4,207 nt of DNA from a virus (IMGVR_UViG_2711768074_000024), one strand, 5' to 3'. Positions 1-4,207 are shown, counted from the first letter of the stretch. The notes: a model not told the origin generated them from the letters alone. Program-made: numbers and translations.

Positions 1-212
1 TTTTTTTACGCACTGCGGTTAATGATTTCATGGATAGCGTCCACCATATTTGGTGTCCACTATTCTCTCAGGAATTTCAGGATCTGCCAGACGGTGCTGA
101 GACGACGCTTACCTTTGGAATGGGCCTTTGAGGATACCAGTTAGTGCTGGCGAGCCTCGGTGGGCTGGTTTCCTATGCGGCAAAGGTTCATTTCAAAGAA
201 GCAGGCAACGCC

Positions 213-761
213 ATGAATGAATTAATTGCGAATCATGACTTCGACTTTCGCCAGTTAGTTACCGCAGCAGAAGGTCAACCGGTAACTGACACCTTCCAGA
301 TTGCCAGGGCATTTGGTAAACGCCATCAGCATGTGATTAGGGCTATTAAATGTTTGAGATGTTCTGAGGAATTCTCGACAACCCATTTTTGGGCCGTCGA
401 GAAAATCAATGACTTAGGTATTTTTGACAAGAAACAGATTTACTACCGCATGGACTTTAGTGGCTTCGTTATGCTGGTTATGGGATTTAACGGGGCAAAA
501 GCCGATGCTGTTAAAGAAGCCTATATCAATGCGTTTAACTGGATGTCAGCAGAACTCCGTAAGTACAGCGAAAGTTATGAAGCAGAACGTAACGCCGTAA
601 TGCTGGAGTACATGAAAGAGAAGGATGTCGCCAGCATGTCAGGCCGTCTGCTCAATCGCTGGGGGAGAACGAAAAAACCTCAATTGCTTGCAAAGCTGGA
701 ACGTCTGGAGAGACAGGGACAGTTTTTATTACCGGGATTCGATAAAGGTATTCAAGCCTGA
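213..761 (+). CDS. rha: Rha-family phage regulatory protein (Phage_pRha-like N-terminal domain with a C-terminal charged, probably helical, extension)
   Basis: The ORF 144..761 translation contains the motif QPVTDTFQIARAFGKRHQHVIRAIKCL followed by FWAVEKINDLGIFDKKQIYYRMDFSGFVMLVMGFNGAKA, which is characteristic of Rha/antirepressor-like proteins (FGKRH..V.R.I core). Start is uncertain: ATG at 213 (MNELIANHDF...) puts the Rha domain at the usual N-terminal position; the ORF track start is GTG at 144, preceded by GAGGA at 130-134. Stop TGA at 759-761. Confidence 0.75.
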   Translation: MNELIANHDFDFRQLVTAAEGQPVTDTFQIARAFGKRHQHVIRAIKCLRCSEEFSTTHFWAVEKINDLGIFDKKQIYYRMDFSGFVMLVMGFNGAKADAVKEAYINAFNWMSAELRKYSESYEAERNAVMLEYMKEKDVASMSGRLLNRWGRTKKPQLLAKLERLERQGQFLLPGFDKGIQA

Positions 762-786
762 CACATTATGCGCTGTATCGTCGCCG

Positions 787-851
787 TATTCCCGCATTAA
801 CCATGACCGTAGCCCGACGGGGAATTCCTTCTGCGTGAGTGTGCGGGAATA
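787..851. other. Perfect 10-bp inverted repeat (TATTCCCGCA at 787-796, TGCGGGAATA at 842-851) around a 45-nt loop with a smaller internal CCCG..CGGG hairpin; potential structured DNA/RNA element
   Basis: Read directly from the sequence. It sits 26 nt after the rha stop and about 100 nt beyond the 3' end of the minus-strand RHH gene. No U-tract follows on either strand, so it is not a classic intrinsic terminator. Confidence 0.45.
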
Positions 852-948
852 ATCAAAAACGATGCACACCGGGTTTTACTGTGCTGACAGACGCAGGGTT
901 ACCCTCATAGTCGCTTTTCCGGTGCGATGGTGGAAGAAACCGGGATGT

Positions 949-1143
949 TCATCCATCATCACTTTGGATTGATGTATATGCTCTCTTTTCTGACGTTAGT
1001 CTCCGACGGCAGGCTTCAATGACCCAGGCTGAGAAATTCCCAGACCCTTTTTGCTCAAGATCGATGTTAATTTGTTCAATCATTTGGTTAGGAAAGCGGA
1101 TGTTGCGGGTTGTTTTTCTGCGGGTTCTGTTCTTCGTTGACAT
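949..1143 (-). CDS. Small ribbon-helix-helix-like DNA-binding protein, YlcI/YnfO (DUF3950)-like, as found next to cos in lambdoid prophages
   Basis: 64-aa ORF MSTKNRTRRKTTRNIRFPNQMIEQINIDLEQKGSGNFSAWVIEACRRRL... has a basic N-terminal tail, then a beta-strand/helix/G-x-S-x-N loop/helix pattern typical of RHH (Arc/MetJ/CopG) folds. The position immediately upstream of cos and antisense to the late genes matches ylcI (DLP12) and ynfO (Qin) in E. coli K-12, as I recall them. ATG is the complement of 1141-1143; stop is the complement of 949-951. Confidence 0.6.
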   Translation of the reverse strand: MSTKNRTRRKTTRNIRFPNQMIEQINIDLEQKGSGNFSAWVIEACRRRLTSEKRAYTSIQSDDG

Positions 1144-1291
1144 GAGGTTGCCCCGTATTCAGTGTCGCTGATTTGTATTGTCTGAAGTTGTTTTTACGTT
1201 AAGTTGATGCAGATCAATTAATACGATACCTGCGTCATAATTAATTATTTGACGTGGTTTGATGGCGTAGATGCACGTTGTGACATGTAGA

Positions 1292-1306
1292 TGATAATTA
1301 TTATCA
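1292..1306. repeat. Near-perfect 15-bp palindrome TGATAA-TTA-TTATCA just upstream of the cosQ/cosN region
   Basis: Read directly from the sequence: 6-bp arms TGATAA/TTATCA with a 3-bp spacer. Confidence 0.5.
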
Positions 1307-1307
1307 T

Positions 1308-1342
1308 TTTGCGGGTCCTTTCCGGCGATCCGACAGGTTACG
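1308..1342 (+). promoter_or_regulatory. cosQ-containing segment of the cohesive-end site (the right-end side of cosN)
   Basis: TTTGCGGGTCCTTTCCGGCGATCCGACAGGTTACG directly precedes the cosN 12-mer and matches the terminal sequence of the lambda right end as recalled, apart from one or two substitutions. The exact cosQ boundaries are not resolved here. Confidence 0.45.
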
Positions 1343-1354
1343 GGGCGGCGACCT
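1343..1354 (+). other. cosN: cosN: the 12-nt cohesive-end sequence GGGCGGCGACCT, with the top-strand nick predicted between 1342 and 1343 and the bottom-strand nick between 1354 and 1355
   Basis: Exact match to the canonical lambda 5' cohesive end. The downstream flank CGCGGGTTTTCGCTATTTATGAAAATTTTCCGG (1355-1387) matches the start of the lambda genome as recalled. cosN lies 195 nt upstream of the small terminase start, close to the lambda spacing. Confidence 0.85.
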
Positions 1355-1391
1355 CGCGGGTTTTCGCTATTTATGAAAATTTTCCGGGATC

Positions 1392-1401
1392 CATGTCCGG
1401 T
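1392..1401 (-). repeat. R-like repeat, inverted copy (CATGTCCGGT, reverse complement of ACCGGACATG)
   Basis: Direct sequence match. The extended 12-mer AAACCGGACATG is shared with the copy at 1478-1490. Confidence 0.55.
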
Positions 1402-1450
1402 TTCTCTGCAAGTTAACTATATGAAAAATATAAAAACAGGCTGTCCGTGA

Positions 1451-1460
1451 ACCGGACATG
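1451..1460 (+). repeat. R-like repeat, direct copy ACCGGACATG
   Basis: Direct sequence match. Confidence 0.55.
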
Positions 1461-1468
1461 TGCAAAAA

Positions 1469-1477
1469 ACGGACATG
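1469..1477 (+). repeat. R-like repeat, degenerate direct copy ACGGACATG (one C missing)
   Basis: Direct sequence match to the CGGACATG core. Confidence 0.45.
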
Positions 1478-1480
1478 TAA

Positions 1481-1490
1481 ACCGGACATG
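1481..1490 (+). repeat. R-like repeat, direct copy ACCGGACATG, followed by the palindrome ACCGGT
   Basis: Direct sequence match; starts 30 bp after the copy at 1451. Confidence 0.55.
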
Positions 1491-1537
1491 ACCGGTTTTG
1501 TTGTGATTGTGAGGTGAGAGTTTTTGCGAGGTGAGGA

Positions 1538-2047
1538 GTGGCTACGCAGACTGAAGTTGCCAGGCATTTAAGTCTGACCGATCGCCAGCTTCGCAGATTG
1601 CAGAAATTGCCGGGTGCCCCGATATCGAATAAGCGAGGGCAACTGGATCTGGATGCCTGGCGCGATTTTTACATATCGTATCTGAGGAGAAGTAAAAACG
1701 ATGTGCCTGATGGCGATAGCGAAGACGACTATGAGGAGAAATTGCTTATTGCCAGATGGGAACTGACAGCAGAACAGGCTGTTACACAGCAGTTAAAAAA
1801 TGAGGTGTCAAAAGGAAAACTTATTGACACCGGGTTCTGTATTTTTGCCCTCAGTAAGCTGGCAATGGCGTTATCCAGTACGCTTGATTCCATCCCTTTA
1901 TCCATGCAGCGACAGTTTCCTGATTTAACACCGCGCCATCTTGACCATCTGAAAACCCTTATTGCGAAGGGGGCAAATCAGTGTGCGCGGGCAGGGGATA
2001 AATTACCGGATTTACTCGATGAATATATCAGAGCAACAACTGAATAA
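1538..2047 (+). CDS. nu1: Terminase small subunit (lambda Nu1 homolog) with a diverged N-terminal DNA-binding domain
   Basis: The C-terminal two-thirds (…TGFCIFALSKLAMALSSTLDSIPLSMQRQFPDLTPRHLDHLK…LPDLLDEYI…) aligns with the lambda Nu1 C-terminal region as recalled (…TAFCTFVLSRIAGEIASILDGLPLSVQRRFPELENRHVDFLK…). The N-terminal roughly 50 aa is HTH-like but differs from lambda. First gene after cos, overlapping the large-subunit start. GTG start at 1538 with AGGTGA/GAGG just upstream; in-frame stop at 1532-1534 rules out a longer N-terminus. Stop TAA at 2045-2047. Confidence 0.85.
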   Translation: MATQTEVARHLSLTDRQLRRLQKLPGAPISNKRGQLDLDAWRDFYISYLRRSKNDVPDGDSEDDYEEKLLIARWELTAEQAVTQQLKNEVSKGKLIDTGFCIFALSKLAMALSSTLDSIPLSMQRQFPDLTPRHLDHLKTLIAKGANQCARAGDKLPDLLDEYIRATTE

Positions 2048-3947
2048 TATGATGGCTGCCGTTTCGGTTGCGCTGCAGCCTCTGGTCAGGGTTGTACCAA
2101 TGACGGCAGTTGAATGGGCTGATCAAAATTATTATCTGCCTAAAGAATCTTCATATGGTGAGGGAGAATGGAAAACGCTGCCATTCCAGATCGCCATTAT
2201 GAACTGTATGGGTAACGACCAGGTTCGCACGGTTAACCTGATTAAATCTGCCCGTGTTGGCTATACAAAGATGTTGCTGGGGGTGGTCGGGTATTTTATT
2301 GAGCATAAATCCCGAAACAGTCTGCTTTTTCAGCCCACGGATTCTGCCGCTGAAGATTTTATGAAGTCTCACGTGGAGGCGACGATTCGGAACGTGCCAT
2401 GCCTGAAAGACCTTTCCCCATGGCTGGGTCGTAAACATCGTGACAATACTCTCACGCTGAAACGCTTTTCATCGGGCGTCGGTTTCTGGTGCCTGGGCGG
2501 CGCTGCCGCCAAAAACTACCGTGAAAAATCCGTGGACGTGGTCTGCTATGACGAACTTTCCTCGTTCGAGCCGGATGTCGAAAAAGAGGGCTCGCCAACC
2601 CTGCTGGGGGATAAGCGTATTGAGGGGTCGGTGTGGCCAAAATCCATTCGCGGCTCGACGCCTAAAATCAAAGGCACCTGCCAGATCGAAAAAGCCGCTA
2701 ACGAGTCGGCGCATTTTATGCGTTTTTATGTGCCCTGCCCGCACTGTGGGGAGGAGCAGTATCTGAAATTTGGCGATGAGTCCACGCCTTTTGGGCTTAA
2801 ATGGGAGAAGGACAGCCCTGAAAGTGTTTTCTACCTCTGTGAACATCATGGCTGCGTGATCCATCAGTCTGAGCTTGACCAGAGCAACGGGCGGTGGATC
2901 TGTGAAAACACGGGCATGTGGACCCGTGACGGTCTGACGTTTTTCAGCGCCCGGGGTGATGAAATTCCGCCGCCGCGCTCCATCATGTTCCATATCTGGA
3001 CGGCGTACAGTCCGTTCACCACCTGGGTACAGATTGTCTATGACTGGCTGGATGCACTGAAAGATCCCAACGGCCTGAAAACCTTTGTGAACACCACGCT
3101 GGGCGAGACCTGGGAAGAGGCCGTGGGCGAAAAACTCGATCACCAGGTACTGATGGATAAGGTGGTGCGTTACACGGCGGCGGTGCCTGCCCGGGTGGTT
3201 TATCTGACGGCGGGCATTGACTCGCAGCGAAACCGTTTTGAGATGTATGTCTGGGGATGGGCTCCGGGAGAGGAAGCCTTTCTGGTGGATAAAATCATCA
3301 TTATGGGGCGTCCTGATGAGGAAGAGACGCTGTTACGTGTGGATGCGGCGATCAACAAAAAATACCGCCATGCGGATGGCACCGAAATGACTATTTCCCG
3401 TGTCTGCTGGGACACCGGGGGGATCGATGGTGAAATTGTTTATCAGAGATCAAAAAAACACGGTGTTTTCCGGGTGCTGCCGGTAAAAGGCGCATCTGTC
3501 TATGGCAAGCCGGTGATCACCATGCCAAAAACCCGCAATCAGCGGGGCGTGTATCTGTGTGAAGTGGGAACGGATACCGCAAAAGAAATTCTCTATGCCC
3601 GTATGAAAGCCGATCCCACGCCTGCGGATGAAGCCACGTCGTATGCCATCCGTTTTCCTGATGATCCGGAGATTTTTTCGCAGACAGAGGCGCAGCAACT
3701 GGTGGCGGAAGAGCTGGTGGAGAAGTGGGAAAAAGGAAAGATGCGTCTGCTGTGGGATAACAAAAAGCGGCGTAACGAAGCGCTGGACTGCCTGGTGTAT
3801 GCCTACGCGGCATTACGTGTGTCCGTGCAACGCTGGCAGCTTGATCTGGCTGTACTGGCAAAATCCCGGGAAGAAGAGACGACCCGGCCAACCCTGAAAG
3901 AACTGGCAGCGAAGCTGTCCGGAGGAGTGAATGGTTACAGTCGCTGA
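2019..3947 (+). CDS. A: Terminase large subunit (lambda gpA homolog; packaging ATPase and cos endonuclease), 642 aa
   Basis: Collinear with lambda gpA as recalled, from the N-terminus (MNIS…TAVEWADQNYYLPKESSYGEGEWKTLPFQ…) to the C-terminus (…KKRRNEALDC…RWQLDL…). Conserved KSARVGYTK (K76-K84, nt 2244-2270) and CYDELSSF (D178/E179, nt 2550-2555), plus HFMRFYVPCPHCGEEQYLKFGD, VNTTLGETWEE and KGASVYGKP. Start ATG at 2019 chosen by homology (MNIS N-terminus) rather than the ORF-track ATG at 1962; it lies inside the 3' end of nu1. Stop TGA at 3945-3947. Confidence 0.95.
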   Translation: MNISEQQLNNMMAAVSVALQPLVRVVPMTAVEWADQNYYLPKESSYGEGEWKTLPFQIAIMNCMGNDQVRTVNLIKSARVGYTKMLLGVVGYFIEHKSRNSLLFQPTDSAAEDFMKSHVEATIRNVPCLKDLSPWLGRKHRDNTLTLKRFSSGVGFWCLGGAAAKNYREKSVDVVCYDELSSFEPDVEKEGSPTLLGDKRIEGSVWPKSIRGSTPKIKGTCQIEKAANESAHFMRFYVPCPHCGEEQYLKFGDESTPFGLKWEKDSPESVFYLCEHHGCVIHQSELDQSNGRWICENTGMWTRDGLTFFSARGDEIPPPRSIMFHIWTAYSPFTTWVQIVYDWLDALKDPNGLKTFVNTTLGETWEEAVGEKLDHQVLMDKVVRYTAAVPARVVYLTAGIDSQRNRFEMYVWGWAPGEEAFLVDKIIIMGRPDEEETLLRVDAAINKKYRHADGTEMTISRVCWDTGGIDGEIVYQRSKKHGVFRVLPVKGASVYGKPVITMPKTRNQRGVYLCEVGTDTAKEILYARMKADPTPADEATSYAIRFPDDPEIFSQTEAQQLVAEELVEKWEKGKMRLLWDNKKRRNEALDCLVYAYAALRVSVQRWQLDLAVLAKSREEETTRPTLKELAAKLSGGVNGYSR

Positions 3948-4137
3948 ACTGCAGGCGCTGCGTCAGGCGCGCCTTGATTTATTAACCGGTAAACGGGTGG
4001 TGTCTGTCCAGAAAGATGGTCGCAGAATTGAATATACGGCGGCTTCTCTGGATGAGCTTAACCGGGCGATCAATGATGCGGAGTCGGTACTGGGGACAAC
4101 CCGACGTCGCCGTCGTCCGCTGGGAGTGAGGTTATGA
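3931..4137 (+). CDS. W: Head completion / head-tail joining protein gpW homolog (68 aa)
   Basis: MVTVAELQALRQARLDLLTGKRVVSVQKDGRRIEYTAASLDEL…RRRRPLGVRL matches lambda gpW in length and sequence as recalled (…[27 protein letters not shown]…). GGAGGAG at 3921-3927 precedes ATG 3931. Overlaps the end of A by 17 nt. Confidence 0.9.
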   Translation: MVTVAELQALRQARLDLLTGKRVVSVQKDGRRIEYTAASLDELNRAINDAESVLGTTRRRRRPLGVRL

Positions 4138-4207
4138 AACGAACGCCTGTCCTGATTGATGTGAACGGCGTTCCGCTTCGTGAGAGTCTCAGCTACAACG
4201 GGGGCGG
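4134..4207 (+). CDS. B: Portal protein gpB homolog, N-terminal fragment (continues past the window end)
   Basis: ATG at 4134 overlaps the W stop (ATGA). Translation MKRTPVLIDVNGVPLRESLSYNGG resembles the lambda gpB N-terminus (MKTPTIP…SLREYAGYHGGG) as recalled. GAGG at 4127-4130 lies upstream. Expected gene order Nu1-A-W-B. Confidence 0.75.
   Translation, partial: MKRTPVLIDVNGVPLRESLSYNGG

Follow-up and report, generated by a model that had tools for sequence, protein, structure and literature searches.

A lambda-like cos carrying a cosB and TerS DNA-binding domain unlike those of lambda, very probably from an Escherichia coli prophage

Lambda virion ends lie joined within a 4,207-nt stretch of viral DNA (IMGVR_UViG_2711768074_000024; "the window" hereafter means this whole stretch), which raises the questions of what kind of molecule the DNA came from and whether its packaging genes could still serve a phage. 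A preliminary description of the sequence had proposed that right-end sequence, cosN and left-end sequence are contiguous, and this is borne out by direct comparison. Positions 949-1342 align with the right end of lambda (96% over 394 bp) and positions 1343-1387 are identical to lambda 1-45 (45/45, ungapped comparison); the two matches meet, and lambda's virion ends are therefore joined at 1342|1343 (lambda 48502|1). Similarity to lambda breaks off at 1387 (lambda bp 45), just short of R3. The core of cos comprises the following features.

949-1342, + strand: homologue of the lambda right virion end (lambda 48109-48502; 377/394 identical, ungapped)
1313-1319, + strand: cosQ (GGGTCCT), packaging-termination signal, lambda-identical in sequence and in distance from cosN, present in 10/10 enterobacterial relatives
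1341-1356, + strand: cosN, nicking site, CGGGGCGGCGACCTCG, 16/16 bp identical to lambda
1364-1384, + strand: cosN-cosB spacer (bp 22-42 from the left cohesive end), TTTCGCTATTTATGAAAATTT, lambda-identical and strongly conserved in relatives

As in a lambda-like cosN, a 12-bp cohesive end close to that of lambda is flanked by conserved CG dinucleotides. This 12-mer, GGGCGGCGACCT (1343-1354), occurs once in the window, against a chance expectation of 0.04 for matches with at most one mismatch. The lambda and phage 21 records start at the 12-mer, from which a top-strand nick at 1342|1343 and a bottom-strand nick at 1354|1355 are predicted. The function of cosQ is taken from lambda (PMC4669245). 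N15 and Monarch have lambda-like cohesive ends as well, but cosN of N15 deviates at bp 9 and 12 and its R3 sequence is different (PMC4669245). The range given in the preliminary description (1300-1400) takes in cosQ, cosN and the first cosB repeat but stops short of the full cos, which spans ~1313 to ~1497. Two ORFs across cos, 1291-1416 (+) and 1367-1567 (-), were treated as spurious.

Late-region genes on one side of the junction and head genes on the other had also been described, and both are present (Rha and YlcI/YnfO; TerS, TerL, gpW and portal). On the late side, the window holds the following.

1-112, no strand assigned: end of an IS66-family insertion sequence (ISEc8-like), terminal 112 nt, 100% identical to AP012536 44174-44285
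144-761, + strand: Rha-family regulator gene with a C-terminal ORF11CD3 domain (PF09669, E 6.9e-21; PF10549, E 4.3e-23; RefSeq annotation in the FDAARGOS_1059 copy, L001)
949-1143, - strand: YlcI/YnfO (DUF3950) gene, 64 aa (PF13132, E 8e-19; RefSeq annotation; aligned to lambda 48109-48303)

The Rha-family gene is a late-region accessory gene 3' of the lysis cassette, and in a 100%-identical chromosomal copy both it and the YlcI/YnfO gene come after the holin, lysozyme and lysis-protein genes. The 949-1143 (-) stretch is ~96% identical to lambda 48109-48303, where the lambda reference record annotates no gene.

That chromosomal copy belongs to E. coli FDAARGOS_1059, whose chromosome matches the window at 100% over 112-4207; many O103:H2, O121 and other strains match at 99.3-99.9% identity, and at least 80% of the window is held by 274 complete E. 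coli genomes. The FDAARGOS_1059 copy sits in a lambdoid prophage with ybhC-int-xis at one boundary and nleA/ybhB/bioA at the other, the classical lambda attachment locus. The integrase and the host genes on both sides were seen in this identical copy and lie beyond the view of the 4.2-kb window. The prophage runs in the order exo-bet-gam, N, cI-like repressor, O/P, Q, holin-lysozyme-lysis protein, Rha, YlcI, TerS, TerL, W, portal, head and tail genes and type III effector genes. Because integration through attP permutes the phage map, cos comes to lie mid-prophage, with the late lysis/accessory genes on one side and the head genes on the other. Past the tail fiber genes, this prophage carries nleB2, nleC (truncated), nleH, cif and nleA (L001 42766-44067; L008).

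At the edge of the window, the insertion sequence end (...GACGACGCTTAC, the reverse complement of GTAAGCGTCGTC) is identical to a segment of AP012536 that adjoins IS66-family transposase ORFs, and E. coli prophage homology begins at 112; the window therefore represents a prophage copy with an insertion sequence placed upstream of Rha. The insertion sequence stops 31 nt before Rha, within the would-be late transcription unit, and 1.2 kb upstream of cosN. A search of 5,426 complete E. coli genomes found this exact junction in none of them. An insertion sequence end at this position fits chromosomal prophage DNA.

The segment downstream of cosN, comprising cosB and the TerS gene (the cosB/TerS module), was found in 1,149 of the 5,426 complete E. 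coli genomes (at least 80% coverage), at a median of 2 and a maximum of 6 places per genome. Among 50,697 phage records, it occurred only in five (PhiR12_1, 2, 2*, 4 and 5). These occurrences bear on where the DNA came from. The preliminary description had left room for circular or concatemeric replicative DNA, to which a circularized virion assembly may be added, as the source in place of an integrated prophage. An intact cos alone fits either state, and the linear PhiR12 records also have cos in mid-record, but chromosomal prophages match the window at 100%, 2,440 of the 2,445 places of the module are chromosomal, and an insertion sequence end lies at the window edge (proviral records carrying insertion sequences exist, but these are prophage sequences); we consider a replicative or virion source improbable. 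An assembly artifact joining the two genome ends, named at the outset as what could overturn the prophage reading, has a negligible chance of being correct, as the same contiguous cos is present in the 1,149 finished genomes and the five phage records. The region is very probably the complete cos, with the terminase genes behind it, of a lambda-like prophage residing in an E. coli chromosome, and the prophage origin proposed earlier is supported by the identical copy at the lambda attachment locus and by the chromosomal placement of the module.

On the head side of cos, four genes follow.

1538-2047, + strand: TerS, small terminase subunit, 169 aa, GTG start
2019-3947, + strand: TerL, large terminase subunit, 642 aa (Pfam GpA_ATPase, E 2.3e-56; GpA_nuclease, E 1.8e-71; no internal stops)
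3931-4137, + strand: gpW, head-completion (head-tail joining) protein, 68 aa (Pfam gpW, E 1.2e-22; 67/68 identical to phage 21 gp3)
4134-4207, + strand: start of the portal gene, which runs off the window (RefSeq portal CDS at the equivalent L001 position; portal protein B in PhiR12_1)

Compared with phage 21 and lambda, lengths were 169 versus 181-182 aa for TerS, 642 versus 641-642 aa for TerL and 68 versus 68 aa for gpW, without internal stops. TerL carries its motifs at the residue numbers of lambda gpA, namely Y46, Walker A (76-KSARVGYTK-84), K166 and Walker B (YDEL, 177-180) and, further on, the nuclease motif GIDSQ (399-403), CWDTGG (463-468) and RRNEALD. The earlier claim of full-length packaging ORFs that keep their ATPase motifs consequently stands for the length of TerS, TerL and gpW and for the motifs of TerL, but is inapplicable to the Nu1-like protein, which is without the glycine-rich GGGKGNEV of lambda Nu1. 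A satellite (PICI) origin of this cos was ruled out, since the locus has its own TerS, TerL, gpW and portal.

Overall identity of TerL to its lambda counterpart is 65.5%. Phage 21 gp2 is matched at 95.5% identity over residues 41-642, whereas residues 1-40 are 37.5% identical to phage 21 and 55% identical to lambda and N15. A mosaic joint thus lies inside TerL (2019-2140 versus 2141-3947), with the first ~25-40 codons lambda/N15-like and the remainder phage-21-like; at the DNA level, similarity to phage 21 starts at 2093. The N-terminus of TerL binds TerS, and the position of the joint is consistent with cosB, TerS and this TerL segment being exchanged together.

Beyond 1387, the locus is no longer that of lambda, and the preliminary description had missed that neither cosB nor the TerS DNA-binding domain is lambda's. 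Over the following 150 bp, in-register identity was 42/150 (28%) to lambda and 38/150 (25%) to phage 21, about chance level, and a lambda-type or 21-type cosB was ruled out by direct comparison. Instead, the window cosB contains five copies of AACCGGACATG with at most one mismatch, where 0.07 were expected by chance and 0/200 shuffles reached five. They occupy bp 50-60 (inverted), 108-118, 125-135, 138-148 and 145-155 (inverted), numbered from the left cohesive end. Together with a candidate IHF site, they are arranged as follows.

1392-1402, - strand: R3-like candidate TerS site (bp 50-60), top strand CATGTCCGGTT, an exact AACCGGACATG at the R3 place of lambda and phage 21 (bp 50-65)
1414-1426, + strand: I1-like candidate IHF site (bp 72-84), TAACTATATGAAA, at the place of phage 21 I1 (bp 74-86, TAACTTTTTGTTT)
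1450-1460, + strand: R2-like candidate TerS site (bp 108-118), AACCGGACATG, inverted relative to R3 and at the same place in all 10 relatives
1467-1490, + strand: extra direct copies, AAACGGACATG (1467-1477) and AACCGGACATG (1480-1490)
1487-1497, - strand: R1-like copy (bp 145-155), top strand CATGACCGGTT, 1 mismatch, in R3 orientation (phage 21 R1, bp 150-166)

These places nearly equal those annotated in the phage 21 record (R3 at bp 50-65, I1 at 74-86, R2 at 107-122 and opposite to R3, R1 at 150-166, TerS start at 189); the window TerS starts at bp 196. An R3 at about bp 50-65, an inverted R2 and an R1 oriented as R3 make up the "complex" cosB architecture known for lambda, 21, phi80 and Gifsy-1 (PMC9026076, PMC4669245), and all three are present here, with two extra (+) copies. 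The overall order of R3 near bp 50, putative IHF site, inverted R2, R1 and then a TerS gene overlapping that of TerL is shared with lambda. The R3-like copy is kept in relatives, and the two direct copies at 1467-1490 are probably accessory because the copy at 1467-1477 is degenerate in PhiR12_1 and four relatives have no further direct copy. The I1-like sequence has 2 mismatches to the IHF consensus YAANNNNTTGATW; perfect consensus matches (TAACnnnnTTGATT) were found in the I1 segment of four relatives (L016, L017, L019 and L022), shifted by a few bp in L016. Between the last cosB repeat and the GTG start of TerS there is a further direct repeat, TTGTGAGGTGAG (1507-1518) and TTGCGAGGTGAG (1524-1535), the second copy of which holds the likely ribosome-binding site of TerS.

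The repeat itself differs from those of the known phages. Lambda has R sequences of the CGTTTCC type in an unrelated cosB. The phage 21 repeat (TTTCATGTCGGACCTT) and the window repeat (CATGTCCGG) share a CATGTC..GG core despite 27% identity of the TerS domains, and the window repeat has an extra C and is displaced by 2-3 bp in register. In N15, GGACATG occupies bp 42-48. No relevant text naming the AACCGGACATG repeat alongside cosB was found in a literature search.

TerS is divided in a similar manner. Residues 1-55 form a winged-HTH DNA-binding domain, with a helix at 15-22 within DRQLRRLQK, and the rest is Nu1-like; the Pfam Nu1 profile (PF07471) matched residues 49-150 only (67.9 bits against a cut-off of 30), missing residues 1-55. 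Identity over these 55 residues was 28% to lambda Nu1, 27% to phage 21 and 14% to N15 (whose TerS, at ~168 aa, is of similar length), and TerS as a whole is 32% identical to that of phage 21. An AlphaFold model of the domain alone (pLDDT 85.8) presented the order strand, helix, helix, wing, helix, and in this model the domain shares the TerS/Rpp/MerR winged-HTH fold with the domains of lambda-type TerS proteins. A PDB search with the TerS sequence or domain profile returned chance-level HTH hits only. The wing is shorter than in lambda Nu1. The helix reads RQLRRLQK versus RTIQNWQE in lambda, so that R sequences and recognition helix are not of lambda type; neither are they of phage 21 type, only the CATGTC..GG core being common with the 21 repeats. 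The PICI Rpp protein (RppC, PDB 6hn7), which redirects lambda-like terminases, is 16% identical to the window TerS, with no sequence-level signal. The window protein is taken as a true TerS and not a hijacker because it has a Nu1-type C-terminal part and because its gene overlaps that of its own TerL directly downstream (29 nt, 2019-2047, compared with 26 nt in lambda).

Are the repeats the sites that this TerS domain reads? Proteins of this TerS family were found in E. coli, Klebsiella, Salmonella, Citrobacter, Enterobacter and E. albertii (60-100% identity, full length). Enterobacterial loci were gathered protein by protein, as a scan of species-representative genomes gave distant relatives only, none of them enterobacterial. 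In all nine further enterobacterial loci, cosQ, a cosN-like sequence and the bp 22-42 spacer recur, as do an R3 at ~50-60 and an inverted R2 at ~108-118. Whereas the stretch separating R3 from R2 is free to diverge, the two copies themselves vary in concert within a locus. Four non-redundant loci pair Arg20 of TerS (in the helix RQLRRLQK) with CCGGACATG, and five pair Asp20 or Asn20 with CCGGAA(A/G)T, a perfect association (Fisher p 0.008, nine non-redundant enterobacterial loci). In a Klebsiella locus (L016), TerS is 94% identical to that of the window in its C-terminal part and 62% identical in its N-terminal domain, and the repeats differ; with the C-terminal parts near-identical and the repeats different, repeat type tracks the DNA-binding domain and not the rest of TerS. 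The invariant repeat core, TCCGGTT, corresponds to bp 54-60, within the stretch that TerS touches in lambda, 21 and N15. As cosB and the TerS N-terminus are less than 200 bp apart, this covariation is ambiguous and could mean joint inheritance instead of contact, and nine loci are few.

The same observations bear on whether the AACCGGACATG repeats are instead operators for another regulator, for example of the Rha family, or promoter elements of the head operon. They do lie just 5' of the TerS start codon, a location suited to a promoter or operator. Lambda head genes, however, are read from pR' and have no promoter of their own; the positions and orientations of the repeats match phage 21 R3, R2 and R1 within a few bp, the repeats covary with the TerS recognition helix, and distant relatives with no Rha gene nearby keep the TTCCGGTT core at the R3 position beside cosQ. 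We regard a regulatory role in place of TerS binding as improbable.

Distant TerS relatives in Azospirillum, Rhodospirillaceae, Sediminihaliea and other Proteobacteria (L010-L015, L024, L025) keep the MATQxEVAxH N-terminus. These loci mostly keep a cosQ-like GGGTCCT about 105-127 nt upstream of TerS, and most have a tandem TTCCGG/TTCCGC repeat (e.g., TTCCGGTTCCGGTT) just upstream. The arrangement resembles the "simple", compact cosB of N15 and suggests, on sequence grounds, an old and widespread compact cos with the same core.

With TerS as the reader of the repeats, packaging at this cos would proceed much as in lambda and phage 21, homology with which provides the TerS binding, the role of IHF and the nick positions assumed here. 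A bend induced by IHF at 1414-1426 would bring together the R3-like (1392-1402) and the inverted R2-like (1450-1460) copies, and the resulting assembly would anchor TerL, which would nick cosN at its two predicted positions to leave 12-nt 5' cohesive ends. DNA would then be pumped rightwards into proheads by TerL, and packaging would be ended at the next cos by cosQ (1313-1319) together with cosN. Within this scheme, the cosB repeats, the TerS DNA-binding domain, the TerS C-terminus and the first ~25-40 residues of TerL appear from their sequence relationships to constitute one exchangeable module, in which the TerS C-terminus is expected to be the partner of those TerL residues. This recognition module appears to have been joined here to a TerL body, gpW and portal of phage 21 type.

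Whether the window's copy can still package DNA, as had been suggested, was considered in light of the phages that share the module. In the PhiR12 records the host is given as K-12 MG1655 or E. coli C. Their DNA identity to the window is 95.7% for the cos-TerS-TerL module and 97.6% for the cosB/TerS module, with 99.4% for the TerS and 96.6% for the TerL protein. Being the only deposited phages with this cosB, they were inspected for their ends, and none of the records starts at the cohesive end, the records being permuted. They suggest that the module works in viable phages, viability here being read from record metadata only, as the describing paper was not found. Since phages with laboratory hosts carry the same cos-TerS-TerL module, packaging ability of the window's copy is plausible. 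O157 lambdoid prophages with intact terminase were packaged experimentally (PMC2669165).

A prophage that forms no particles of its own, and whose cos at most serves in trans another prophage in the cell with matching specificity, is nevertheless a substantial possibility, although one that we lean against. An IS66-family end lies between the lysis genes and Rha in the late transcription unit, but no ORF of the window is interrupted by an insertion sequence. The identical chromosomal copy has an IS100 between its cro-like gene and cII, as well as a truncated antiterminator gene, while its head and tail genes are all annotated intact. The IS100 (L001 5907-7707) has a frameshifted istB, and the truncated antiterminator gene (L001 12638-12709) adjoins an lpxR-family gene; the FDAARGOS_1059 copy is probably impaired in regulation. 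In favor of this reading, genomes hold a median of two and up to six module copies, and in O157 Sakai most lambdoid prophages are defective, with Sp4 thought to be packaged by the Sp14 terminase (PMC2669165). Against this, the PhiR12 phages have the same module, and the view of the window's own copy is limited to 4.2 kb. The reading retained here is a prophage that may still package DNA.

The lambdoid prophages of EHEC O157 Sakai (Sp4/Sp14 and others) and the effector-carrying prophages of O103, O121 and O145 are among the nearest known counterparts. Most of the Sakai prophages encode intact terminase and several were packaged; nu1 of Sp4 is cut by ISEc8, and its packaging by the Sp14 terminase was proposed because the two cos sequences match. 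The putative cos and Nu1 of Sp4 and Sp14 had already been aligned with those of lambda (PMC2669165). At the genome level, the window's module is shared with O157:H7 (up to 3 listed copies) and with O103, O121 and O145 strains.

Overall, the locus is ordinary, in that a prophage with an internal cos and intact terminase genes is textbook and common. Its cosB/TerS variant is absent from the published Feiss-lab lists of lambda-like packaging specificities, as far as the accessible papers extend, and experimental work on this cosB/TerS type was searched for in the literature and none was found. We tentatively propose, as close to an even call, that a cosB with a CCGG core and a TerS domain beginning MATQxEVAxHL constitute a further lambda-like specificity apart from those of lambda, 21 and N15, that it is carried by many effector-carrying prophages in about one fifth of complete E. 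coli genomes and often in several copies per cell, that Arg20 reads a C:G of the repeat, and that co-resident defective prophages may be packaged in trans. The locus would then represent a common EHEC/EPEC prophage packaging module with its own recognition code, for which the pairing of Arg20 with C:G is the prediction. The sharing of specificity between prophages has already been proposed for Sp4 and Sp14 of O157, and a packaging specificity common to several prophages in one cell would bear on how defective, effector-carrying prophages may be mobilized.
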